Source: Vectrevirus T147P1
Length of the DNA stretch: 43,709 bases
Sequence record: OZ035797.1
Direction: 5' to 3' (one strand)
Below, one piece after another: positions 7,850 to 27,758 of the stretch. The position numbers and the translations under genes are program-made. The notes below the pieces were generated by a model. That model was not told the DNA's origin and made no database searches. It was given only the letters and a program-made list of their open reading frames with translations. How positions within the stretch are numbered: position 1 is the stretch's first letter; every line of letters starts with the position of its first letter.

Positions 7850-8700
7850 GTTAATATCTTAGTGTACACAAGGGCAGACCTAGGTTTGCTCTTAGTGTAT
7901 TTACAATGGAGGTCTTATGTATATACCTATTGAAGCAATAGTAGGTTGCCTATGTTTGTTGATAGGTTTCGTTATAGGCGTAATAGCAAAGCCTTAGTAC
8001 TGTACAAGGATTAACCAAAGTCAAAATTTTGATATAGGCGTGTGTCAGCTCTCTCGCCCTCGCCCTCGCCGGGTTGTCCCCATATGGGGTCGGTCGGCGG
8101 TTGACCTAGGAATTTGGCGGGGCGGGTCCGTCTTCAACCTGCTGCCGCAGGAAGCTCGACGGGTGGGCGAGGGCTTGCCTTGTACTCGCTTAGTGGTACA
8201 CAAGGAGAACGCCTAGGAAGCGCTAGGGCACGCCTTAGTATTGGACAAGGTGATTGCCTTAGTTCAACCGCTTAGAGCTTACACGGGCCGTTTTAGGGCC
8301 ATTCCTGAGCGTTTGACAGGGTGTGAGGGCGTGGGCTATCTGTTCGTTTCGTTCACTCCGCTTGCGCTACGTTCACTCGCTCACGTGTACCTTAGGTTAT
8401 TCCTTGATGGATAGCTTAGGTTAGCCTTAGTGGATTACCTTAGTTAAAGCCTTAGTGCTTCACTTAGTATCAGCTTAGTAGTGTACCTTAGTAAGTATTA
8501 GTGTCTTCTCTTAGTGATTGCACATGCAAGCATGTAAGATGCCATTAGGTCGCGGTCGGTAGACCGCTAAAGAAGGAGAATAGTAATAAGATGCAGTAGG
8601 AGGAACACCCGAAACCTAGCCAACCTAGCCTATCCTAGCTCTGTATCTATTGCTTTTCCTTAGTCTAACATGTGAGACAACCTAGATTTATCTTAGTGAT
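7850..8700. repeat. genome terminus-like non-coding region with short repeats
   Basis: no long ORF; two copies of CTTAGTG(G)TACACAAGG near 7859 and 8189; GC-rich island with CTCGCC x3 (8053-8070) and CCCCATATGGGG (8078-8089); >10 copies of CCTTAGT/GCTTAG within 8230-8520; resembles the T7 left-end architecture. Confidence 0.5.
8664..8679. repeat. degenerate copy of the palindromic hairpin family
   Basis: GTCTAACATGTGAGAC, one substitution from the GTCTCACATGTGAGAC palindrome. Confidence 0.35.
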
Positions 8701-8842: not shown

Positions 8843-9064
8843 ATGTATGCCGTGGTTAATTACTTATTGAATGAGGGATTAACTATGACATTAAACAACC
8901 GTGAACTATCCGTTCTCTTCACTCTGTTGTGCTACATGATTCGTAACAACGAATTACTTACAGATGATGAGTTAGCCTTGTATCACCGCTTTCTTAACGA
9001 AGGTTGGACCGATACAGTTAATCAATACCGTAACATGATAGATGAGTTGAGGGAGGGTAAATAA
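8843..9064 (+). CDS. hypothetical early protein (start may be ATG 8885)
   Basis: 73-aa ORF; internal ATG at 8885 has a better SD (GAGGGA); first ORF after the early promoter. Confidence 0.5.
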   Translation: MYAVVNYLLNEGLTMTLNNRELSVLFTLLCYMIRNNELLTDDELALYHRFLNEGWTDTVNQYRNMIDELREGK

Positions 9065-9288
9065 TGTATCAACATGAGGTATTCTTTGAATCAGCTAGCG
9101 AAGCTATTCGCTTCCGTGATGATATGATGCAAGCTGGTGTAGGCGTTGATGTGTATCACTATTTGATAGATTACGACACTGAATATCACCGAGTTACCTT
9201 AGTATCTGAGTATGACAACCAAGTCATTACTGAGTACCTAGGCAGTGAAGATTACGATTACGATGAAGTAATCACGACAAATCTCTAA
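9064..9288 (+). CDS. hypothetical acidic early protein
   Basis: 74-aa ORF overlapping the previous stop (TAATG); acidic, Tyr/Asp-rich C-terminus. Confidence 0.5.
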   Translation: MYQHEVFFESASEAIRFRDDMMQAGVGVDVYHYLIDYDTEYHRVTLVSEYDNQVITEYLGSEDYDYDEVITTNL

Positions 9289-9296
9289 ATTAACTG

Positions 9297-9325
9297 TTGA
9301 CAGCCACGGCATACAAGGTTACATT
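9297..9325 (+). promoter_or_regulatory. host sigma70-like early promoter candidate
   Basis: TTGACA, 17-nt spacer, TACATT. Confidence 0.5.
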
Positions 9326-9406
9326 AAGCACATAGCCGATAGGCAACGCTCTTTAACAATACGGTTTGTGTCTTGATAGGCTAACTAACTAACTAAGGTA
9401 ATTATC

Positions 9407-9517
9407 ATGAAAGGTTTAATTTGTGTAGAACGTATGGTCAATGGTAAACTTGAAATATTACCACTGGAAAACCAATCTAGCTTCAAAGAGTGGTATGGCT
9501 GTTTCTCACTGATTTAA
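9407..9517 (+). CDS. hypothetical small early ORF (36 aa)
   Basis: ATG after CTAACTAACTAACTAAGG; follows the conserved GCTCTTTAACAAT leader element. Confidence 0.3.
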   Translation: MKGLICVERMVNGKLEILPLENQSSFKEWYGCFSLI

Positions 9518-9666
9518 GGTAAAGGCTGGCACTAGTCAGCCTATCAAGGCGCAAACCAAGCTCTTTAACAATTTGGATGGTAGCTTCTTAGTCTGGATAG
9601 GTTAAACCTAGGGTATTCTTTTGAGTACCCTATAATGTAACCTAACTAACTAATGAGGATTAAATC

Positions 9667-9999
9667 ATGGAACGCAATGCTAACGCTTACTACAACCTTC
9701 TGGCTGCAACTGTTGAAGCATTCAACGAGCGTATTCAGTTTGATGAGATTCGCGAAGGTGATGATTACTCTGATGCACTACATGAGGTTGTAGACAGCAA
9801 TGTTCCAGTTTATTACAGCGAAATCTTTACAGTGATGGCTGCTGATGGTATTGATGTTGATTTTGAGGATGCTGGTTTGATTCCTGACACGAAGGATGTA
9901 ACCAAGATTCTACAAGCTCGCATCTATGAAGCTCTTTATAATGATGTACCAAATGACAGCGATGTAGTTTGGTGTGAAGGCGAAGAAGAGGAAGAATAA
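9667..9999 (+). CDS. ocr: Ocr (gp0.3) DNA-mimic anti-restriction protein
   Basis: 110 aa, acidic; DEIREGDDYSDALHEVVDSNVPVYYSEIFTVMAADGIDVDFEDAGLIPDTKDVTKILQARIYE aligns closely to T7 Ocr as recalled; poly-Glu C-terminus. Confidence 0.9.
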   Translation: MERNANAYYNLLAATVEAFNERIQFDEIREGDDYSDALHEVVDSNVPVYYSEIFTVMAADGIDVDFEDAGLIPDTKDVTKILQARIYEALYNDVPNDSDVVWCEGEEEEE

Positions 10000-10001
10000 G
10001 G

Positions 10002-10115
10002 ATGGAAAAGCAATATAACTTTATCTTTTCAGACGGTGTAACCCTGAAGTGTTCCCTACGATTCGCACAAATTCGTGAGGAAGTACTAGGCACTACATAC
10101 AAACTATTTAGCTGA
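10002..10115 (+). CDS. small early protein, possibly gp0.4-like
   Basis: 37-aa ORF after AAGGA, directly downstream of ocr as T7 gene 0.4 is; weak similarity (SDxV...SL..AQ..E). Confidence 0.3.
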   Translation: MEKQYNFIFSDGVTLKCSLRFAQIREEVLGTTYKLFS

Positions 10116-14068: not shown

Positions 14069-14084
14069 GTCTCACACGTGAGAC
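14069..14084. repeat. palindromic hairpin element (family copy A)
   Basis: GTCTCACACGTGAGAC, immediately upstream of the promoter at 14087. Confidence 0.6.
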
Positions 14085-14449: not shown

Positions 14450-14668
14450 ATGGCTAAATACAGAATCAAGACCTGTTTAAATAGTCACGGGCAAGAGTTC
14501 TACGTAGTGCAACGTAAAGTATTAGGCTTAATATGGGTCACTTGTATGATGCCTATTGGCTATACTGATACAGAGGCTATCTTCTGCACCGAAAGGGATG
14601 CAAAGAAGTTTATCTCTAAGCGTAGAAAAGCTGACTCTTACCAACCTAGAATTATTAAGGTGAACTAA
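14450..14668 (+). CDS. hypothetical protein
   Basis: 72-aa ORF between the gp1.1-like gene and primase/helicase; 4-nt spacing upstream, overlapping stop/start downstream. Confidence 0.5.
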   Translation: MAKYRIKTCLNSHGQEFYVVQRKVLGLIWVTCMMPIGYTDTEAIFCTERDAKKFISKRRKADSYQPRIIKVN

Positions 14669-16656
14669 TGGCTATTATTAATAACATCCCGTGCCCTGCC
14701 TGTCAAAAGAATGGACATGATATTACTGGCAACCATCTTATGATATTTGAGGATGGCGCTGGTTACTGTAACCGTGGTCACTTCCATGATAATGGTAAGC
14801 CTTATTACCATAAGCCAGAGGGTGGTATCGAGATAACCGAATTGCCTATTACTGGCAATATCAAATATACACCTTCTCAATTCAAAGAAATGGAGAAGGA
14901 AGGGAAGATAAGCGACCCTAAGCTACGCGCCATCGCTCTTGGTGGTATGCGTATGAAAGACCGTTGGGAGGTCATGAATGAGCAAGAAAGGGCAGACCAA
15001 GAAGCAGAGTGGAAACTTGATGTTGAATGGTTCCTCACGCTTAAGCGTAAGAACCTTGTTTCCAGACACATTCGCGGCGACATTTGCGCATTGTATGATG
15101 TACGTGTCGGACACGATGAAGAGGGTAGAGTCTCGCGGCATTACTATCCACGCTTCGAGAAAGGTGAGCTAGTAGGAGCTAAGTGTCGCACATTACCTAA
15201 AGATTTTAAGTTTGGTCATTTAGGTAAACTCTTTGGTATGCAAGATCTTTTCGGTATGAATACTTTGTCTCACGTGTTAGACAAGGGGAGACGAAAGGAT
15301 TGCTTGCTTATTGTAGGCGGTGAACTTGATGCACTAGCAGCGCAGCAGATGCTCCTTGATTCTGCCAAGGGTACTAAGTGGGAGGGTCAGCCATACCATG
15401 TATGGTCTGTCAACAAAGGTGAGTCTTGCCTTGAAGAGATAGTGCAGAACCGTGAGCATATCGCCCAATTCAAGAAGATTATATGGGGTTTTGATGGAGA
15501 TGAGGTAGGGCAGAAGCAGAATCAGCAAGCGGCTCGCCTGTTTCCTGGCAAATCCTATATCCTTGAATACCCCTCTGGTTGCAAAGATGCTAACAAGGCA
15601 TTGATGGCTGGCAAGGCTAAAGAATTTGTAGATGCATGGTTTAATGCCAAGTCATCTGATGAAGTCTTTGGTAGCCAGATTAAATCTATCGCATCTCAAA
15701 GGGATAAGCTCAAGGCTGCACGTCCAGAGCAAGGACTATCATGGCCTTGGCCTAAGCTGAACAAGGTAACGCTAGGTATTCGTAAGAACCAGCTTATCAT
15801 TGTAGGTGCAGGGTCTGGTGTAGGTAAGACTGAGTTCCTTCGTGAAGTAGTTAAGCACCTCATTGAAGAACACGGTGAATCTGTAGGCATCATTTCTACA
15901 GAAGACCCGATGGTCAAGGTGTCCCGTGCTTTTATCGGCAAGTGGATTGATAAGCGTATTGAGTTACCGCCAACCAACGACCCGAAAGAAGACGGATACC
16001 GTGAGGTGTTCGACTACACCGAGGAAGAAGCTAACGCCGCCATTGATTATGTAGCTGATACAGGTAAGCTGTTTGTAGCTGACCTAGAGGGTGACTATTC
16101 GATGGAAAAGGTAGAGCAAACTTGCCTAGAGTTTGAGGCTATGGGCATTTCTAATATCATCATTGATAACTTAACGGGGATTAAATTAGATGAGCGTGCT
16201 TTTGGTGGGAAGGTTGGTGCACTTGATGAATGCGTCAAGCGGATTGGTACTATCAAAGACCGACACCCGGTTACTATATTCCTTGTATCACACCTTACAC
16301 GTCCTCCGGCAAACCGTACCCAACACGAAGAAGGTGGCGAGGTTATCCTTTCTGACTTCCGAGGCTCAGGCGCTATCGGATTCTGGGCATCTTACGCCTT
16401 GGGGATTGAGCGTAACACAAGAGCTGAAACGCTTGACGAAAGGACTACCACGTACATCTCATGTGTCAAAGACCGCGACCAAGGTATCTACACTGGAACC
16501 AAGGTCATGCTTAAGGGTGACATTCAAACCGGACGTTTAATGGAACCACAAGCCCGTACTAAGTCATTTGATACAGGTGAAGCAAGGCAACAAGAAGTAC
16601 CAGATTTACCGGACACTATAGAAGAGACTAACTTCGATGAAGAAAGTGAGTTCTGA
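14668..16656 (+). CDS. DNA primase/helicase (T7 gp4-like)
   Basis: 662 aa; N-terminal zinc ribbon CPACQ...CNRGH; Walker A GAGSGVGKTE; acidic C-terminus ending EESEF. Confidence 0.9.
   Translation: MAIINNIPCPACQKNGHDITGNHLMIFEDGAGYCNRGHFHDNGKPYYHKPEGGIEITELPITGNIKYTPSQFKEMEKEGKISDPKLRAIALGGMRMKDRWEVMNEQERADQEAEWKLDVEWFLTLKRKNLVSRHIRGDICALYDVRVGHDEEGRVSRHYYPRFEKGELVGAKCRTLPKDFKFGHLGKLFGMQDLFGMNTLSHVLDKGRRKDCLLIVGGELDALAAQQMLLDSAKGTKWEGQPYHVWSVNKGESCLEEIVQNREHIAQFKKIIWGFDGDEVGQKQNQQAARLFPGKSYILEYPSGCKDANKALMAGKAKEFVDAWFNAKSSDEVFGSQIKSIASQRDKLKAARPEQGLSWPWPKLNKVTLGIRKNQLIIVGAGSGVGKTEFLREVVKHLIEEHGESVGIISTEDPMVKVSRAFIGKWIDKRIELPPTNDPKEDGYREVFDYTEEEANAAIDYVADTGKLFVADLEGDYSMEKVEQTCLEFEAMGISNIIIDNLTGIKLDERAFGGKVGALDECVKRIGTIKDRHPVTIFLVSHLTRPPANRTQHEEGGEVILSDFRGSGAIGFWASYALGIERNTRAETLDERTTTYISCVKDRDQGIYTGTKVMLKGDIQTGRLMEPQARTKSFDTGEARQQEVPDLPDTIEETNFDEESEF
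16604..16626 (+). promoter_or_regulatory. phage RNAP promoter inside the 3' end of the helicase gene
   Basis: ATTTACCGGACACTATAGAAGAG. Confidence 0.6.
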
Positions 16657-17844: not shown

Positions 17845-17965
17845 TTTCATCATATTGATTGGAGGTGCATTATGCCACGTGATTATGATTCTGATTGGGA
17901 CTATTATGACTCAATGAATCCAAAACCCGAACGTTCAGATGATTACTACGAAACAGAGGCAATGT

Positions 17966-20512
17966 ATGAAGATTATTGATTGGAAGAATGAGGCAGAAGG
18001 TCGTATCCTCGTGATGGATGCGGAAGCTAAAGGACTCCTTGACGCTATCCGATATGGGCACCGTGAAGATGTGCATATCATTTGCTGCATGGATTTGCTT
18101 ACTACCGAGGAGTTTCTCTTCTTTGACCCGTATGAGATGCGTGACCCTGAAGCAAGAGAACGCCTGAAGGAATGGGAAGGTCATCAAGATGGAACCTTGG
18201 TTGACGGTGTTAACTTCCTGAAGCACTGTGAGGCTATTGTGTCGCAGAACTTCCTAGGGTATGACGGTCTTCTCTTTGAGAAAGCATTCCCTGATATTTG
18301 GAAAGGCTTTAACTATACCGAGAAGCGCGGCAAGGGCAGACTCCGTGCTGACCTGTGTCCGGTGCGAGTCATGGATACGCTGGTGATGAGTCGCCTGTTA
18401 AACCCCGATAGACGCCTTCCTCCGCAAGCATATGCCAAAGGTATGGGTAACGTCGCCCCTCACTCAATTGAGGCGCACGGCATCCGTATAGGCCGCTATA
18501 AACCAGAGAACGAGGACTGGTCTAAACTAACTGATCACATGGTTCACCGTGTACGTGAGGATGTGGCGATTGGTCGTGACCTATTCCTCTGGCTCTTTAA
18601 CGGGGAATGGATGGAGCACAAACGCCGTGGCGTGAACAAACGTACTGGCCTAGGGATTGAGACAGCCTTCCACATGGAGTCCATTGTGGCGCTGGAGATG
18701 AGCCGTCAGGCCGAGCGCGGGTTCCGTCTGGATATTGACAAAGCACTAGCGCGATGCGAAGAATTGGACGCTAAGATTGACGAGACAGTCGCAGCGTTCC
18801 GCCCTCACATGCCTATGCGTATCAAGTCTAAACCTTTTAAACCGGAAGAAAAGAATGAAGTATGCCAACGCGCAAATGAGTATGGAGCTAGCAACAATAT
18901 ACCCACTGTCCTTGACCCCTCACACTTTCTTCATGCCGAGAGACGAGGAGATCGCAAGACAGTATGGAGTGTCACTACTAAGTCTGGTGATTGGTCGGCT
19001 AGTGTCAAGAAAGACTTTCCTCACCTTAGAGGAAACCGTAATGACACGCCAAGCATCAAGTGGATTGGCGCTTACTCGCCTGTTACTTTCGAAGAGATCC
19101 CCTTGGGTAACAGGGATACAGTTAAGCAAGTGCTCTATGATTATGGATGGAAGGGTGTTGAATTTAATGATACCGAGCAAGCACACCTTGATGAGTATGG
19201 AGTGTTACCCAAACCTTGGAGTGGGAAGATAAATGAAAAGTCCCTTACTTTATGGCAAGAGAGAGCCGCACGTGAAGGTAAAACAGTACCCGATTGGTGC
19301 TTGGGTATCGCTGCATGGTACATACTCGTATCCCGTCGTGGTCAGATCCTCAACCGTGGTGACGTTGAAGCCTTCAACGAGAAAGGGACGTGGCCTTCGC
19401 AAGCTGGTGTACGAAAGTGTCGCGGCCTTGTACCTGTAGCATTTAACAAGGAGCTAGGAATCAATGCGCAGCAATACTACGAGAGGTACGGATGCTGGCC
19501 TACGTCAGACAAGGATGACGGAGAGTGGCGTGTTCCAGCTGTTGCTATTAGCATTGGCACTTCTACGTTCCGTATGCGTCATCGTAACGTGGTTAATATT
19601 CCTGCCCGTGGCTTGTATCCTTTACGTGATTTATTCATAGCAGGGAAAGGCAAGCTAATCCTTGGTTGTGACGGTGCAGGTCTTGAACTGCGTGTCCTGT
19701 CTCACTTCATGAATGACCCTGAGTACCAAGAGATTGTACTGCACGGTGATATTCATACGCATAACCAGATGAAGGCTGGTCTTCCTAAGCGTGATATGGC
19801 GAAGACGTTTATATACGCCTTCCTCTATGGCTCTGGTATAGCCAACCTTGCAGCAGTATGTGGTGTTACTGAGGAAGAAATGAAGGAAGTTGTGGCAAGA
19901 TTCGAGATTGAACTGCCGTCTCTTGCACGTCTTCGTGAGAATGTTATCGCACAAGGTAACAAGTTTGGCTACCTGCAAGCACCTGATGGGCATTGGGGTC
20001 GCATCCGCATGTCTGGTGGTGAACTTAAAGAGCACACGATGCTTAACGTATTACTCCAGATGACTGGCTCTTTGTGTATGAAATATGCATTAGTCAAGGC
20101 ATTTGCAGTAATGCGCAAGGAAGGTGTAGCCTTGGATGCTATGGGAAATCCTTGTGGTGTGGCTAACGTGCATGATGAAATCCAGATGGAAGTTCCTGAA
20201 GAGGAGGTCTTGTATCTTAACTACGACCTACCTTTCACCTTAGATGGGTTCGAAACAGAGAAGGCTGCCGTGAAAGCAGTGTTCGATGCAGAGGAGAAAC
20301 GTGTTCATGTGGATTCTGAAGGACGTATGTGGTCTGCTGCAAACCTCGTTAGTGTTGATGCTGATGCTGGTGTATTGCATTGCCAGCGCCGTTATCACCG
20401 TGCAGGTCATATCATTGCCGACGCCATGACTTGGGCAGGGCAGTATCTGAAGATGCGTTGCCCGATGGCAGGCGAATATAAGATTGGCGCAAGTTGGAAG
20501 GAAACACACTGA
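17966..20512 (+). CDS. DNA polymerase, family A (T7 gp5-like) with 3'-5' exonuclease domain
   Basis: ATG at 17966 after AGAGG; Exo I-like LVMDAEAKG; polymerase motifs DGAGLELRVLSH, KTFIYAFLYGSG, VHDEIQ. Confidence 0.9.
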   Translation: MKIIDWKNEAEGRILVMDAEAKGLLDAIRYGHREDVHIICCMDLLTTEEFLFFDPYEMRDPEARERLKEWEGHQDGTLVDGVNFLKHCEAIVSQNFLGYDGLLFEKAFPDIWKGFNYTEKRGKGRLRADLCPVRVMDTLVMSRLLNPDRRLPPQAYAKGMGNVAPHSIEAHGIRIGRYKPENEDWSKLTDHMVHRVREDVAIGRDLFLWLFNGEWMEHKRRGVNKRTGLGIETAFHMESIVALEMSRQAERGFRLDIDKALARCEELDAKIDETVAAFRPHMPMRIKSKPFKPEEKNEVCQRANEYGASNNIPTVLDPSHFLHAERRGDRKTVWSVTTKSGDWSASVKKDFPHLRGNRNDTPSIKWIGAYSPVTFEEIPLGNRDTVKQVLYDYGWKGVEFNDTEQAHLDEYGVLPKPWSGKINEKSLTLWQERAAREGKTVPDWCLGIAAWYILVSRRGQILNRGDVEAFNEKGTWPSQAGVRKCRGLVPVAFNKELGINAQQYYERYGCWPTSDKDDGEWRVPAVAISIGTSTFRMRHRNVVNIPARGLYPLRDLFIAGKGKLILGCDGAGLELRVLSHFMNDPEYQEIVLHGDIHTHNQMKAGLPKRDMAKTFIYAFLYGSGIANLAAVCGVTEEEMKEVVARFEIELPSLARLRENVIAQGNKFGYLQAPDGHWGRIRMSGGELKEHTMLNVLLQMTGSLCMKYALVKAFAVMRKEGVALDAMGNPCGVANVHDEIQMEVPEEEVLYLNYDLPFTLDGFETEKAAVKAVFDAEEKRVHVDSEGRMWSAANLVSVDADAGVLHCQRRYHRAGHIIADAMTWAGQYLKMRCPMAGEYKIGASWKETH

Positions 20513-20628
20513 TGGATAGGCTTGACATTGTTTGCCTATTCTTCACTTTCTTTCTTACACTCCTTATGCTTGCTTGTTATGGGAGTATGAGACTAGATAT
20601 ACCTGATGAAGAAGAGGGTTACGACTAA
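20512..20628 (+). CDS. tiny membrane peptide 1 (38 aa)
   Basis: ATG overlaps DNAP stop (TGATG); hydrophobic LFFTFFLTLLMLA then acidic tail ending GYD. Confidence 0.3.
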   Translation: MDRLDIVCLFFTFFLTLLMLACYGSMRLDIPDEEEGYD

Positions 20629-21131: not shown

Positions 21132-21509
21132 ATGTCTATGGTAACTACTCTGGTATTTGTAGCTCAATACTTTCGTGGTCTGGCTAATAAGTTCAAGTCC
21201 AAGGCTATCAAAGCTATTGAGTCTCGCATCGAGGCAGTACAGGCAGAGCAAGTTAAAGTTGAAGAACATCGTAGTTCTCAAATGATTGACTGCCATAACC
21301 GCTACTATGAATCTCGTGATGACCTTAATGCACGCCAAGTCAAAGAGGTTGAAGAGATGCTGGCACGTCACCAGCAAGAGCGCGACAGCCTGAAAGCTGA
21401 ATTTGAAGAGAACAAGGCATCCATCGCCCTTGTACATCAAGCCGCATCTGACAGCCTGAAGAAAGAGATTGTTATGCTGGAAATTGAGTTAGACAACCTG
21501 ACCAAATAA
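21132..21509 (+). CDS. hypothetical protein (hydrophobic N-terminus, coiled-coil-like)
   Basis: 125-aa ORF after TAGGAGATATAAAC. Confidence 0.5.
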   Translation: MSMVTTLVFVAQYFRGLANKFKSKAIKAIESRIEAVQAEQVKVEEHRSSQMIDCHNRYYESRDDLNARQVKEVEEMLARHQQERDSLKAEFEENKASIALVHQAASDSLKKEIVMLEIELDNLTK

Positions 21510-21530
21510 TTACTGGACACTATAGAACAA
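21508..21530 (+). promoter_or_regulatory. phage RNAP promoter
   Basis: AATTACTGGACACTATAGAACAA. Confidence 0.65.
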
Positions 21531-21586: not shown

Positions 21587-22393
21587 ATGGCACGTGGTGA
21601 TTTTGATTTTGGTGCTCAGGTTACTAAAGCTGAAGGTAAGGTTTTTAAGAACCCTGAAGTTGGTGATCATGAAGCAGTAATCTCTGGCATCATTCATGTG
21701 GGTTCCTTCCAAGATATCTTTAAGAAAGGTAATACCACTGAAGTTAAGAAGCCAGCAAACTTTGTTCTTGTTAAGATTGTACTGATGGGTGACGATGACA
21801 AGAACGAAGATGATTCTCGCATGGAACAATGGATGGCTGTTCCTCTGAAGTCTGGTGATAAGGCAACACTGACTAAGTTCCTGAATGCAGTTGACCCCAA
21901 AGAATTGCTTGGTGGCTTCGATGATTTTATCGGGGAATGCCTGACTGCAACTATGGTTGGCTCTGGTGACAAGAATGACGATGGTTCATTCAAGTATGTT
22001 AACTGGAAAGGATTCGGTGGTATGCCTGACAAGCTTAAGAAACTTGTCATTGCTCAGGTTGAAGAAGAGGGTCTGTCTATGACAGGTCACATCACCTTCG
22101 ACAAGCTGACCAAAGAAATCCTTGATGACATTCCTGCTAACTTGGTACGCCAATACTTCCTTAATGAAACACCTCGTGGTAAGAACCTGTCTGTTGCTGG
22201 TTCTCACGTAGAAGCAATCATTAAAGCTGCTCGTGAAGAAGACCCAGAGTGGAAGAAAGCCAAGAAGAAAGATGACGAGGATGCTACTCCAGCTAATCGT
22301 AAATCTCTGGATACTGGTGAGTCTGTTCCACAGGAAGTACCTGAAGCAGAAGATACTCCTGCACCGGAGATGGATGAGGACGCGGAATATTAA
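21587..22393 (+). CDS. hypothetical protein with acidic C-terminal tail (possible ssDNA-binding or replisome accessory protein)
   Basis: 268 aa after TAGGAGACTAAATAA; C-terminus ends EMDEDAEY; size compatible with a gp2.5-type SSB but no direct similarity recognised. Confidence 0.5.
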   Translation: MARGDFDFGAQVTKAEGKVFKNPEVGDHEAVISGIIHVGSFQDIFKKGNTTEVKKPANFVLVKIVLMGDDDKNEDDSRMEQWMAVPLKSGDKATLTKFLNAVDPKELLGGFDDFIGECLTATMVGSGDKNDDGSFKYVNWKGFGGMPDKLKKLVIAQVEEEGLSMTGHITFDKLTKEILDDIPANLVRQYFLNETPRGKNLSVAGSHVEAIIKAAREEDPEWKKAKKKDDEDATPANRKSLDTGESVPQEVPEAEDTPAPEMDEDAEY

Positions 22394-22402
22394 GGAGAAA
22401 GG

Positions 22403-22621
22403 ATGAAAGTACAAATCGTAACCCTGCACTGCAAGAAAGGTATCACAACGCTCGGAGGTGGCACTTTCCACTCTTTCTCCGAAGGGGAGATTTATGCTGA
22501 CCTGCACTACATCTGGCGCGACGGACAGCACGTGGTGAACTACAGCGACCCAGCTACGGGGAAACGCCACGGCGTATCGCTTCCGGCGCATGACATTGCT
22601 CAGGTGAACACAGTTTTATAA
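22403..22621 (+). CDS. hypothetical protein
   Basis: 72-aa ORF after AAGGAGAAAGG. Confidence 0.5.
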   Translation: MKVQIVTLHCKKGITTLGGGTFHSFSEGEIYADLHYIWRDGQHVVNYSDPATGKRHGVSLPAHDIAQVNTVL

Positions 22622-22622
22622 A

Positions 22623-22638
22623 GTCTCACGTGTGAGAC
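22623..22638. repeat. palindromic hairpin element (family copy E, reverse-orientation centre)
   Basis: GTCTCACGTGTGAGAC, upstream of the promoter at 22654. Confidence 0.6.
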
Positions 22639-22653
22639 AAATCGGTGTCCGGT

Positions 22654-22676
22654 ATTTACTGGACACTATAGAAGAG
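22654..22676 (+). promoter_or_regulatory. phage RNAP promoter
   Basis: ATTTACTGGACACTATAGAAGAG exact consensus. Confidence 0.75.
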
Positions 22677-22726
22677 AAGAATTTTAATCGGTGATAATGC
22701 CATAACCAACAAAAGGAGAATTTAAT

Positions 22727-23098
22727 ATGTTCAAGATTGAAACTATCGTAAACCGTGTTGTTAAAGGTGCTGCTCTGGTATCCGTTGAGTCTTTCATTAT
22801 CGTCGATGAAGCTGATCAACTGGTAGCTGGTACTAAGGCTTACGATACCCGTGAAGAAGCTCAGGCTAAGATTGACAGCATGGGTAACTTCGCTGCTGGT
22901 CTGGAGTTCGCTCGTGCTTGCTTCCCTGAGCAGGCTGACAAAGCTCAGATTGGTAAGGCTAATATCGTAGCTGAATATCTGGATTGGGTTGCTGCTGGTA
23001 AACCAGTGAAAGAAGTTAAGGCTGCTGAAGAAGCTGAAGCTCCAGCAGAAGAAGTAGCTGCACCGGAAACTCCGGTAAGCGAAGAGGAAGAATTTTGA
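22727..23098 (+). CDS. small acidic protein with C-terminal EEEEF tail; function unknown
   Basis: 123 aa; strong SD AAAAGGAGAA; own promoter upstream and terminator-like hairpin downstream. Confidence 0.6.
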   Translation: MFKIETIVNRVVKGAALVSVESFIIVDEADQLVAGTKAYDTREEAQAKIDSMGNFAAGLEFARACFPEQADKAQIGKANIVAEYLDWVAAGKPVKEVKAAEEAEAPAEEVAAPETPVSEEEEF

Positions 23099-23157
23099 TA
23101 ATAGCAGGTGTTGCCTCTGTTAGTCCTGGTTGACTATCACGCTCACCTCATCTAATG

Positions 23158-23190
23158 CCCTGTCTGCCTTAGTGTAGGCAGGGTCTTTTG
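23158..23190 (+). terminator. terminator-like hairpin after the small acidic protein gene
   Basis: CCCTGTCTGCC-TTAGTGTA-GGCAGGG followed by TCTTTTG. Confidence 0.45.
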
Positions 23191-23215: not shown

Positions 23216-23512
23216 ATGCCGACTATTGAATCTCGTTTACGCGCTGACTATAATAGATACTTTAGCCGCTTACATAGGGATTATATGACACACGTTACAG
23301 TATGGTTAGATGGTGAGATATTCTTAGTGTATGAGTATTTACATGATACGGATGACCGCTATGACCCTAGTTCCTTCCAAGTAGCAAAGTCTATTGTAGA
23401 GCACATCTTGAAGGAGTGGCCTACATGCGACCAAACTTCGACTTCGGAGCTACAGTATCGGAAGACAATAACCTGTTGCTGTGGCCAACTGAAGGTAATA
23501 GAATCGCTTTAA
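23216..23512 (+). CDS. hypothetical protein overlapping the exonuclease start
   Basis: 98-aa ORF after TTGGAGAATGAATT; 3' ~90 nt overlap the exonuclease gene in another frame. Confidence 0.35.
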   Translation: MPTIESRLRADYNRYFSRLHRDYMTHVTVWLDGEIFLVYEYLHDTDDRYDPSSFQVAKSIVEHILKEWPTCDQTSTSELQYRKTITCCCGQLKVIESL

Positions 23513-24453
23513 TAGATGCTGACATGTTACCCTACATCGTAGGTTATACAATCAGTGACATGACTTATGTACGAGCCACAACTCGTGTTAAGTCAGGACA
23601 AGTCCCATCAATCAAAGATACACCTGAATGTAAGCAAGCGTGTGACCGTGTGAACTCCTTGCTCAACTCTTGGGTGTATGCAGCAGAGTGTGATGCAGCT
23701 AAGTTATTCATGACGAAATCAGAAGCTAACTTCCGTGTTCGCCTAGCCTTCACCAAGCCTTATAAGGGTCAACGTAAGACCGAGAAGCCTCCATTCTTCT
23801 ATGAATTGCGAGAGCATCTCTTAGAGGTTCATGGTGCAATCTTGGCAGATGGAGAAGAGGCTGATGACCTCATGAGCATTGCACAATGGGACAGCCACCG
23901 CCGCTTCCAGCAAGATACAGGTAACGAGTTCCCTATCGGTAGTCCAGAGCATAAAGCATTCTCTGATACTTGCATCGTTTCCTTAGATAAGGATTTGATG
24001 ATTGTTCCCGGTTGGCATCTTCAGCCGGGTCAAGAGAAGAAATGGGTAGAGCCTATGGGTTGGCTTGAGTTACGCCGTAAGGCTAATGGTCAGGTTAAAG
24101 ACCTTAAAGGTGCTGGCCTCATGTTTCATTATGCACAGATGATTATCGGTGATGATATTGATAACTATGCTGGCATACCTGGACGTGGTGCTAAATACGC
24201 CTATGATCTTCTCAAAGATTGTAAGACAGAGAAAGAGTTGTACATGGCAGTGCTTGGTGCTTACAAGGCTAAGTTCGGACATGGACAAGTTAAGATTAAG
24301 AATTACCGAGGTGGTTATCGTATCGGCAAGGCTTTTGACCTGATGCTCGAATGTGGTCGCCTAGCTCACATGGCAAGATTCAAAGGTGATATATGGCGAG
24401 CCGATAAGAACCCAATCTTGTGGGGAGATGATGCGGAATGGTTAGCAAATTAA
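23425..24453 (+). CDS. 5'-3' exonuclease (T7 gp6-like, FEN family)
   Basis: ATG at 23425 after AAGGAG; LIDADMLPY, ADDLM, SLDKDLMIVPG and GDDIDNYAGIPGRGAKYA parallel T7 gp6 motifs as recalled. Confidence 0.85.
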   Translation: MRPNFDFGATVSEDNNLLLWPTEGNRIALIDADMLPYIVGYTISDMTYVRATTRVKSGQVPSIKDTPECKQACDRVNSLLNSWVYAAECDAAKLFMTKSEANFRVRLAFTKPYKGQRKTEKPPFFYELREHLLEVHGAILADGEEADDLMSIAQWDSHRRFQQDTGNEFPIGSPEHKAFSDTCIVSLDKDLMIVPGWHLQPGQEKKWVEPMGWLELRRKANGQVKDLKGAGLMFHYAQMIIGDDIDNYAGIPGRGAKYAYDLLKDCKTEKELYMAVLGAYKAKFGHGQVKIKNYRGGYRIGKAFDLMLECGRLAHMARFKGDIWRADKNPILWGDDAEWLAN

Positions 24454-26452: not shown

Positions 26453-26627
26453 TATGGAAGGTAAACTGTATAGAGGGTACTTTGGTAACTTATATAAAGT
26501 AAGCCCTCGCGGTTTTGTATTGACCTCTAACGATGAAGGTGTAACGTGGTATTTAAGTGCCTATGGTTCTGACTTAGCGTACTTTAAAGAGGCAATAGTC
26601 AAAGGTGTGATGAAGGAGGTGAAATGA
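26439..26627 (+). CDS. hypothetical protein
   Basis: 62-aa ORF overlapping neighbours at both ends. Confidence 0.4.
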   Translation: MRIFDMEGKLYRGYFGNLYKVSPRGFVLTSNDEGVTWYLSAYGSDLAYFKEAIVKGVMKEVK

Positions 26628-27571
26628 ATATCTTCCAATTCCTAGGCCTTCCAGAAGGCCACCGCAACCACCCATTCATGCTGGTGAAGCATCGCGGTGA
26701 AGTACCTGAGAAGAAACTAACATTTCCATGTTATGCACAGGTGAAACGAGATGGTATCTTTTCTGCTGTTGTTGTTCGCACTGATGGTGTCGTTGGCATT
26801 TTTGGTCGCACTGGTAAGAAACTGGCAAACACTGAAGGCCTCGAACAAACATTTGCTACCTTTCCGGTTGGCATTTATCTTGGTGAGCTTCAGTCTATGG
26901 CCATTGATATCTACCTTGAGGCAATCTCTGGGGTTGTGAACCCTAATCGCACTGAGCCACTTGATTTCATAGGCCAGCAGATTAAAGACAACCTGTATAT
27001 CGACTTCTTCGATATGTTAACTATTAAGGCATTCCATGATGGATTCACTGATGTTTCTTATCTCAAACGTTACGATGCTTTACATCGCCGCATCGGCGCT
27101 CATCTTAGCGGGTACAACGCTATCCTTCCTATTACTCCTTGCCATAATGAGCGAGAAGTTGAAGCGTTTGCGCAAGAGCAGATAGACGCAGGCCGAGAAG
27201 GTGCTGTGTTTAAACTGGACTGTGATTATGAAGCAGGACATAAAGGTTATCGTCAGACTAAAGAAGTCCGTAAGGTAACTTATGACCTTACTTGTATTGG
27301 CTTTGAAGAAGGTAAAGGCAAATACAAAGGTAAGGTAGCTAACCTCATTTTCAAATGGAAAGGAGGCAAGACAATCAAAGCTATGTTAGGTAAGGGGTGG
27401 ACTCATGCAGATGCAGAACAGATGTTCCACGACATTAAACATGGTGGACGATTGAATGTCATTGGTAAAATCTTTGAAGTCAAAGGTCTTCAGGATTCAA
27501 GCAAGGGCAACATTCGTCTGCCCAAAGCGGGAGAATTAAGACATGACAAAGATGAACCAGATTTCTTTTGA
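26624..27571 (+). CDS. ATP-dependent DNA ligase (T7 gp1.3-like)
   Basis: 315 aa; adenylation motif KRDG in YAQVKRDGIF; size and fold pattern of small phage ligases. Confidence 0.7.
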   Translation: MNIFQFLGLPEGHRNHPFMLVKHRGEVPEKKLTFPCYAQVKRDGIFSAVVVRTDGVVGIFGRTGKKLANTEGLEQTFATFPVGIYLGELQSMAIDIYLEAISGVVNPNRTEPLDFIGQQIKDNLYIDFFDMLTIKAFHDGFTDVSYLKRYDALHRRIGAHLSGYNAILPITPCHNEREVEAFAQEQIDAGREGAVFKLDCDYEAGHKGYRQTKEVRKVTYDLTCIGFEEGKGKYKGKVANLIFKWKGGKTIKAMLGKGWTHADAEQMFHDIKHGGRLNVIGKIFEVKGLQDSSKGNIRLPKAGELRHDKDEPDFF

Positions 27572-27758
27572 TAGCATGAAGGCAACTCGTGCAGTTGAGG
27601 TAGCAGAAGCTATCTTTGAAACTTTATCCTGTGGCATGGAAGTGCCATATACTTTACTTGCTGATGCAGAAGAACTTGGTCTTTCTGTAGAAGCTATCCA
27701 AGAGAAGGTTGACGAATTATATGGTACAGACGAAGAAGAAACCGACGATTTCATTTGA
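27543..27758 (+). CDS. hypothetical acidic protein
   Basis: 71-aa ORF overlapping the ligase 3' end. Confidence 0.45.
   Translation: MTKMNQISFDSMKATRAVEVAEAIFETLSCGMEVPYTLLADAEELGLSVEAIQEKVDELYGTDEEETDDFI

Follow-up and report, generated by a model that had tools for sequence, protein, structure and literature searches.

Acidic-aromatic C-terminal tips on a predicted OB-fold single-stranded DNA-binding protein and on a small non-OB protein in the replication module of Vectrevirus T147P1

Results

The DNA of Vectrevirus T147P1 analysed here (sequence record OZ035797.1, 43,709 nucleotides, in the following called the window) is a K1-5/SP6-like genome of ~43.7 kb, and its replication module encodes three proteins, all from the plus strand, that end in a short acidic peptide closed by an aromatic residue. 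One of them is the primase-helicase of 662 residues (14668..16656, plus strand), an open reading frame (ORF) translation whose K1-5 counterpart gp9 is annotated as DNA primase/helicase, and which carries the tip FDEESEF at 16633-16653. The other two are the subject of this study. A 268-residue protein, the predicted SSB (protein that binds single-stranded DNA), is encoded at 21587..22393 (plus strand) and corresponds to the product of K1-5 gene 16 (gp16), and a 123-residue protein encoded at 22727..23098 (plus strand) corresponds to the product of K1-5 gene 18 (gp18; gp20 in SP6). K1-5 names neither of them, and its genes 16 and 18 are flanked by the genes for the DNA polymerase and a 5'-3' exonuclease. 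The region is 93-98% identical to the Vectrevirus Escherichia phages K1-5, K1E, LL11 and vB-Eco-KMB14, and Salmonella phage SP6 is also related.

A sequence-only reading of this region had drawn attention to the three C-termini, ...ETNFDEESEF in the primase-helicase, ...PAPEMDEDAEY in gp16 and ...PVSEEEEF in gp18, and all three read exactly as it stated. We scanned the 50 plus-strand ORFs for proteins with at least four D/E and no K/R/H among the last eight residues and with an aromatic last residue, and exactly these three were returned. Shuffling within the proteins gave a mean of 0.03 such tails, with three never being reached in 5000 shuffles, and the internal 8-mers of the same proteins predict 0.02. 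A similar scan of T7 returned gp2.5 and gp4 only, among 56 coding sequences. Relaxing the criterion added an ORF of 44 residues (...EEEGYD) and one of 71 residues (...EETDDFI).

The tips are conserved in the homologues of both proteins. Family A, as we call the homologues of the 268-residue protein, comprises 47 clusters with identities down to 33%. Y or F is the last residue in 43 of its 45 full-length members, and the other two end in ...DFS, with F at position -2; the tip as such is retained in all 45. E occupies position -2 in 40/43, and the tip is preceded by the motif P-A-P-x-M/L-D, giving a consensus of P-A-P-x-M/L-D-x-x-x-E-Y/F, while the 30 residues before it are variable. In family B, the homologues of the 123-residue protein, F or Y is last in 166 of 182 members, E is at -3 in 164 of these 166, while position -2 may hold E, T, A or Q. 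Of 62 distant relatives, 46 retain the tip. ...E-E-x-F is conserved to ~33% identity, and the Ala/Glu/Pro-rich linker that precedes it differs among members in its length as well as in its sequence. Short linear docking motifs have this signature, in which the linker varies and the tip behind it is fixed. The two families differ in the register of their tips, E-Y in family A and E-x-F in family B, a difference that the sequence-only reading had not remarked upon.

That reading had proposed to look for an OB fold in each protein by structure prediction, and an OB-like barrel was predicted in the 268-residue protein, but none in the 123-residue one. The AlphaFold model of gp16, made from a 35-sequence alignment, has a mean predicted local distance difference test (pLDDT) score of 82 and shows a five-stranded beta-barrel of OB topology (residues 26-144) followed by a helical domain (residues 148-230). 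In general terms the predicted barrel is thus an OB fold, although it has no specific resemblance to the T7 gp2.5 structure 1JE5 with its long alpha-1 helix. On the DNA, the protein divides into a disordered but conserved N-terminal arm (residues 1-18, 21587-21640), the OB-like barrel (residues ~25-145, 21659-22021), the helical domain (22028-22276), and a disordered linker and tail (residues 231-268, 22277-22390), of which the tip PAPEMDEDAEY occupies 22358-22390. The pLDDT is below 50 for residues 230-252 of the tail. In the N-terminal arm it is only 35-42, yet M1, F6, G9, A10 and G17 are invariant over 35 homologues, in a motif M-A-R-x-F-D-F-G-A.

By Foldseek, the gp16 model has 72 matches at E<=1e-3 in BFVD, nearly all of them uncharacterised phage proteins. 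They include proteins of the phiKMV-type Pseudomonas phage P3_CHA, of Ralstonia phages and of Xp10, and two proteins named DUF669 are matched at E 2.5e-5 and 1.4e-4. On the sequence level, residues 10-258 match phrog_862 (E 3.5e-60), a family annotated as of unknown function. In comparisons with Pfam and NCBIfam, and with the PDB by phmmer and hmmsearch, run with the single sequence and with the family profile, gp16 gave no above-threshold match. No SSB family was matched by those ORFs of the window that were scanned, which were about half of the 50. In the phage records listed, what is annotated beneath the gp16 match is either a "hypothetical protein" or a gene without a name, except for one record with a different gene label. 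The gene has a strong Shine-Dalgarno sequence, and in all five other phage loci that we inspected it lies between the DNA polymerase and exonuclease genes.

The model of gp18 looks altogether different. It consists of a beta-hairpin and two long helices, with pLDDT values of ~90 over residues 1-95, and we found no convincing structural relative and no detectable nucleic-acid-binding fold. The folded part, a beta-hairpin plus a helical hairpin, covers residues 1-97 (22727-23017) and is mildly acidic by residue count; the disordered Ala/Glu/Pro-rich linker and the tip cover residues 98-123 (23018-23095), with SEEEEF at 23078-23095. From its model, gp18 thus appears to be a small, non-SSB protein with a novel alpha/beta domain, a variable linker of ~25 residues and an ...E-E-x-F tip. 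We considered it as a second SSB or OB-fold paralogue and rejected this, since the prediction shows no OB fold and its profile has no similarity to that of the 268-residue protein. The suggestion of a split or duplicated SSB function, which had been put forward on the basis of the two tails, therefore finds no support. We likewise rejected gp18 as a paralogue of the gp16 helical domain.

Over its full length gp18 matches phrog_4429 (E 7.6e-58), with distant relatives at 1e-18 to 1e-24; this family, too, carries no annotated function, and the same comparisons with Pfam, NCBIfam and the PDB gave no match for gp18. A word-indexed search returned 203 matches for family B, to which HMMER, run exhaustively over 1.84 billion representatives, contributed no more than 26, of 59-149 residues, which indicates that the gp18 family is narrow. 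No Rosetta-stone fusions occur among these 26 matches. A sub-clade of 84-100 residues has neither the N-terminal beta-hairpin nor the tail. The two proteins travel together: by tblastn, 215 phage records have gp16 and 212 have gp18, the counts for each genus are almost the same, and the gp18 gene lies ~0.3-1 kb downstream of the gp16 gene across phage records.

Both genes are preceded by a site resembling a phage RNA polymerase promoter. The 21-mer promoter consensus has 10 copies in the window, as compared to 0 expected by chance. Upstream of gene 16, by 58 nucleotides, lies AATTACTGGACACTATAGAAC (21508..21528, plus strand), which has two mismatches to the 21-mer, and 52 nucleotides upstream of gene 18 lies a perfect-consensus site, ATTTACTGGACACTATAGAAG (22654..22674, plus strand). 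Gene 18, which has a strong Shine-Dalgarno sequence, is followed 59 nucleotides past its stop codon by a terminator-like hairpin (23157..23184, plus strand) with an 11 bp stem and then CTTTTG, which folds with -18.4 kcal/mol (z -2.5) and is identical in K1-5. In phi-A318, an annotated phage promoter, phiA54, is found at the position equivalent to the gene 18 promoter, and 3' of the gp18 orthologue there is a different 11-bp GC-rich hairpin with a T-run. The layout of promoter, gene and hairpin (22654-23184 in the window) is thus common to K1-5 and phi-A318 (8876-9347 of the phi-A318 locus, L004). Placed between a consensus promoter and a terminator-like hairpin, gene 18 looks like a nearly monocistronic, strongly transcribed unit, and for the same reason gp18 is probably abundant.

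In the same intergenic region we noticed a 16-bp palindrome, GTCTCACRYGTGAGAC, which occurs eight times in the window as compared to 0 expected by chance. Exact copies start at 14069, 14249, 16678, 17825, 22623 and 39234, all six intergenic, and copies with one mismatch at 8663 and 15267. Those at 14069 and 22623 lie within ~15 nucleotides upstream of a phage promoter site, and the latter (22623-22638) directly precedes the gene 18 promoter. The palindrome could be an RNA processing or regulatory hairpin.

Comparing the tails across lineages, we find that those of the helicase, the SSB candidate and gp18 tend to agree within a phage. In phi-A318 (Colwellvirinae) the three proteins end in ...DDTQEF, ...DEEQEF and ...AEDEEF, and in ECBP5 (Gajwadongvirus) in ...DTDGEF, ...NTDEEF and ...AEDETF. 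In two divergent metagenomic contigs, L006 and L012, the helicases end in ...DFA and ...DFG and the SSB candidates in ...DFG and ...DFS, respectively, and gp18 has lost its tail. The helicase of L013 ends in ...KVEEF. T7 has ...DTDF on gp4 and ...DGDF on gp2.5, and no third tailed protein. That the endings agree lineage by lineage suggests co-evolution of the tips with a receptor common to them, in a sample that is small and uncorrected for phylogeny. phiKMV stands apart. Its ORF21 (9043-10092 of the phiKMV locus, L009) matches phrog_862 at 9.2e-95 and thus belongs to the same family as gp16, but neither ORF21 nor the helicase candidate ORF15 has an acidic-aromatic tail. As the ligase of phiKMV does not have such an end either, the tail system appears to be specific to SP6-type and T7-type modules.

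Weaker versions of the tail, which the sequence-only reading had missed, are present in the same module on the ligase (...DKDEPDFF) and on the 71-residue ORF (...EETDDFI). The ATP-dependent DNA ligase (315 residues, 26624..27571, plus strand) ends in ...RHDKDEPDFF, with DEPDFF at 27551-27568, and its Pfam ligase domains, the last of which is an OB domain, end at residue 306. The ligases of phi-A318 (...SEPDF), ECBP5 (...TGDY), L006 (...DEPDY) and L012 (...ETPDY) likewise end in an aromatic residue, which the T7 and phiKMV ligases lack. The ligase C-terminus may be a fourth docking tip of the module. The 71-residue ORF (27543-27758, plus strand; K1-5 gp25; phrog_5860, a family of unknown function) extends across the stop codon of the ligase gene and has ...DEEETDDFI as its C-terminus; phi-A318 gp25 ends in ...EEDDFDDE, and ECBP5 0033 in ...EPEGED without an aromatic residue.

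Two further acidic ends were noticed in the window. A 110-residue Ocr-type DNA mimic (9667-9999; Pfam PF08684, 9.6e-31) ends in ...EGEEEEE with no terminal aromatic residue, and is an internal example of an acidic C-terminus that is not a docking tip. The 44-residue ORF (20494-20628, K1-5 gene 13.5), which overlaps the end of the polymerase gene and ends in ...PDEEEGYD, has a hydrophobic N-terminal half that probably spans the membrane, and it is probably unrelated to replisome docking.

Of the neighbouring genes, the family-A DNA polymerase (857 residues, 17939..20512, plus strand) is the proposed receptor for the acidic tips, by analogy with T7. Its best sequence match in the PDB is the T7 polymerase, and over the palm and fingers, the only parts that the alignment covers, it has 35% identity to T7 gp5; its thumb could not be aligned with that of gp5. 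Between the two tailed genes lies an ORF of 72 residues (22403..22621, plus strand; K1-5 gp17), which matches phrog_5791 at 8.6e-42, and proteins resembling it by eye are encoded between the gp16 and gp18 genes of phi-A318 (gp17, 91 residues) and L013 (101 residues). Downstream of the terminator-like hairpin, an ORF of 98 residues (23216-23512; phrog_10319, label "DNA repair protein") overlaps, in another frame and by ~100 nucleotides, the longest exonuclease ORF, which begins with GTG (23416-24453); the true start of the exonuclease is uncertain, because public records differ on its placement.

Discussion

We consider it probable, though by no means settled, that gp16 is the replicative SSB of this phage and bears a tail that docks on the replisome, and that gp18 is an accessory, adaptor or regulator protein that bears a similar tip without being an SSB. 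For gp16 itself, its being the phage's unannotated SSB is the most likely assignment; it would work in the manner of gp2.5 while standing outside the gp2.5 sequence family. Such a protein would bind single-stranded DNA (ssDNA) through a strongly diverged OB-fold core, to which the extra helical domain has been added, and the conserved N-terminal arm may mediate cooperative binding. The tip of its flexible acidic tail would dock on a basic site of the replisome, most likely on the phage DNA polymerase, as the T7 gp2.5 and gp4 tails do, and by the same analogy the tip of the helicase would dock on the SP6-type polymerase. The tip of gp18 may then occupy a site of the same class, where the protein could serve the replication-recombination machinery. 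The co-occurrence of the two genes, the persistence of the tip across subfamilies and the expression signals together speak for gp18 being tied to the SSB and the replisome. The idea of a small competitor for the docking site, be it a decoy or a regulator, which was raised along with that of a split SSB, is compatible with all that we found for gp18: a conserved tip, an occurrence that strictly follows that of the SSB, a promoter of its own and a terminator-like hairpin.

Several points weigh against this proposal. Neither gp16 nor any of 34 homologues has a Pfam match at E<=1, including to SBB_T7, Enc34_ssDNA-bd and DUF669, while T7 gp2.5 itself scores 1.1e-89 against PF21265 SBB_T7. Profile comparisons of family A by hhalign with T7 gp2.5 (probability 0.1%), with N4 SSB (E 0.16), with PrgE and with phiKMV ORF21 were not significant, though the templates were single sequences and hence weak, and phiKMV ORF21 does join the family by its phrog_862 match. 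The sole named sequence hint is a sub-threshold match to the NCBIfam NGO0469 "replication initiation protein" family (E 8.5e-4, 18.9 bits as compared to a cut-off of 75), and the evidence for the fold consists of predicted models, not of solved structures. The different registers of the gp16 and gp18 tips imply that they may bind different pockets, and the tailless, hairpinless gp18 sub-clade implies that the core function of gp18 is independent of the tip. Furthermore, a promoter consensus and a terminator-like hairpin do not prove high expression of gp18. Finally, alignment to T7 gp5 did not locate a tail-receptor patch on the phage polymerase, because of the thumb that resists alignment, and where T7 has its front basic patch, this polymerase is basic only in part.

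One can go further and propose that a shared acidic-aromatic C-terminal code is used by at least four SP6-type proteins (the helicase, the SSB, gp18 and the ligase), and that gp18 is an abundant factor providing a "tail in trans", which does not bind DNA and has the tip as its only docking element. It might then gate the access of the other clients to the polymerase as a regulator of exchange or recycling, or it might be a phage-encoded accessory subunit of the polymerase, in place of the host thioredoxin that T7 uses. This extended version is rather unlikely.

Among the alternatives, we regard it as unlikely that gp18 is a decoy directed at the host, whose tip saturates the pockets for the E. 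coli SSB C-terminus on, among others, ExoI, RecQ, RecJ, PriA and the chi subunit and thereby disables host repair or nuclease functions or redirects them to phage DNA. A conserved tip on a gene with strong expression signals would suit such a role, as would a tip register that is unlike those of the phage SSB and helicase and fits a different receptor, and it has been proposed that phage SSB-type C-terminal tips may engage host factors, e.g., in Bas52_0087 (10.64898/2026.04.29.721553). However, the tip reads ...E-E-x-F and not ...D-D-D-I-P-F as in enterobacterial SSB, and it is the same in phages of Vibrio, Pseudomonas, Marinomonas and Erwinia, such that it goes with the replication module of the phage and not with a single host. 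The strict co-occurrence of gp18 with the phage SSB family and the fact that the helicase and SSB tails have another ending in both sampled contigs with a tailless gp18 also speak against a host target. We give distinctly little credence to a heteromeric ssDNA-binding complex of gp16 and gp18, in which gp18 would be a non-OB subunit that adds a second tail, or would lay its tail into the OB cleft of gp16 and tune its affinity for DNA. The near-perfect co-occurrence and tight linkage in at least three Autographiviridae lineages could be taken this way, as could the separate phage promoters of the two genes, and in T7 the gp2.5 tail competes with ssDNA for the protein's own binding cleft (PMC10359462). 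But the linkage is not specific, because both genes co-occur with the whole SP6-type replication module, and gp18 shows no detectable nucleic-acid-binding fold and has a mildly acidic folded domain.

A further alternative leaves gp18 aside and questions gp16, which might be another OB-fold factor of DNA metabolism, acting in replication initiation, origin melting or strand annealing, with the phage relying on the SSB of its host. The sub-threshold NGO0469 match points in this direction, and one genome paper (PMC9145550) describes DUF669 proteins as distantly homologous to annealing proteins. Moreover, LUZ19 Gp21, when expressed alone, is toxic and reduces transcription and translation, not DNA synthesis (PMC3604761). 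We nevertheless hold this to be quite improbable: a disordered acidic-aromatic tail on an OB core, together with the apparent abundance of LUZ19 Gp21, is the canonical signature of an SSB, and none of the scanned ORFs matched a known SSB family. The roles are not exclusive in any case, because T7 gp2.5, as annotated, combines SSB and annealing functions. It is very improbable, finally, that the acidic tails on gp18 and the other small ORFs have no part in docking and are generic, serving, e.g., solubility, DNA mimicry or charge balance, with an incidental aromatic residue at the end. The genome does contain acidic proteins of unrelated role, namely the Ocr mimic and the 44-residue ORF, but Ocr lacks the terminal aromatic residue, and the near-invariance of the last residue and of E at -3 in the gp18 family, behind a linker that is free to vary, indicates a short linear motif and not bulk charge.

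If our preferred assignment of gp16 as a replicative SSB is correct, the protein is a new, unannotated member of the class of OB-fold, acidic-tailed phage SSBs, though earlier remarks to this effect are possible in the 2004 genome papers on SP6 and K1-5. The SP6-like and K1-5-like phages are therapy candidates, have been used in work on capsule depolymerases and are the source of SP6 RNA polymerase; the SSB candidate is nonetheless a "hypothetical protein" or without a name in essentially all 215 GenBank phage records that have it. Its assignment would supply a central piece that is missing from the replication module in several Autographiviridae subfamilies, and it bears on the whole phrog_862 family, including phiKMV ORF21, which is without annotated function. 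It would also make gp16 a candidate for triggering those defence systems that respond to SSBs; the papers on these systems do not cover SP6-like phages. As to gp18, a third phage-encoded tip-bearing protein, neither SSB nor helicase and with its own apparent transcription unit, is not described for T7. The coordination of the T7 replisome has been explained by two acidic tails that compete for sites on the polymerase, to which gp18 adds a third tailed protein, and it thus offers a genetically tractable case for the question whether phages regulate replisome traffic via a dedicated tail-bearing competitor or adaptor.

With respect to known systems, the tip of E. coli SSB (…DFDDDIPF) is similar in being a short acidic, Phe-ended peptide on a disordered linker that recruits partners. 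It differs in its I-P-F motif, which is absent from the tips of both families, and in its OB family, and in the phage non-SSB proteins also carry the tip. The best structural match of gp16 is PrgE of plasmid pCF10 (PDB 8S4S), at 14% identity and without profile similarity. PrgE has 144 residues, with neither the helical domain nor the acidic-aromatic tail, and binds double-stranded DNA as well as ssDNA. It forms filaments on DNA by means of its N-terminal arm (PMC11137577), and it is tempting to speculate that gp16 may use its invariant FDFGA arm likewise.

A further parallel is provided by DUF669 and the SSB of phage N4, for which it was proposed that they are SSBs with a highly diverged OB fold and an acidic tail, in phages that have no recognisable SSB (Kazlauskas et al. 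2016, PMC4889955). gp16 resembles this group in having no known sequence affinity, an acidic C-terminal tail, a weak OB-fold signal and a genome without a recognisable SSB. However, the DUF669 Pfam model matches none of the 35 gp16 family members, and N4 SSB ends in ...SLFGKK, unlike the acidic-aromatic tip of gp16. phiKMV ORF21 shares with gp16 its phrog_862 membership and its position between polymerase and exonuclease, but has 349 residues and a Pro/Val/Ala-rich end (...IPAVPQV) without an acidic-aromatic tip. Between ORF21 and the exonuclease gene, phiKMV has no separate gene, though no search aimed at gp18 homologues was made in this phage. LUZ19 Gp21, which we assume to be the orthologue of ORF21, ranks among the early-middle proteins that are most abundant in infected cells (PMC3604761).

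Among the closest parallels is T7 gp2.5, which likewise has an OB-fold core, a disordered acidic tail with a terminal aromatic residue and its own phage promoter. In T7, the tail of gp4 uses the same basic patches of the polymerase as that of gp2.5. Removal of the terminal Phe from gp2.5 abolishes polymerase binding and leaves ssDNA binding unaffected, according to the summary in 10.64898/2026.02.22.705581. Where the two proteins part is in the SBB_T7 profile and the 1JE5-specific form of the OB fold. The comparison with the tails of gp2.5 and gp4, from which the sequence-only reading had started, is thus a reasonable one for the 268-residue protein with its predicted OB core, but does not extend to an SSB-like role of the non-OB 123-residue protein. 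In both phages the helicase carries a matching tail, and the mechanism that we propose here, a tail tip docking on the phage's own DNA polymerase, is the same as that of T7.

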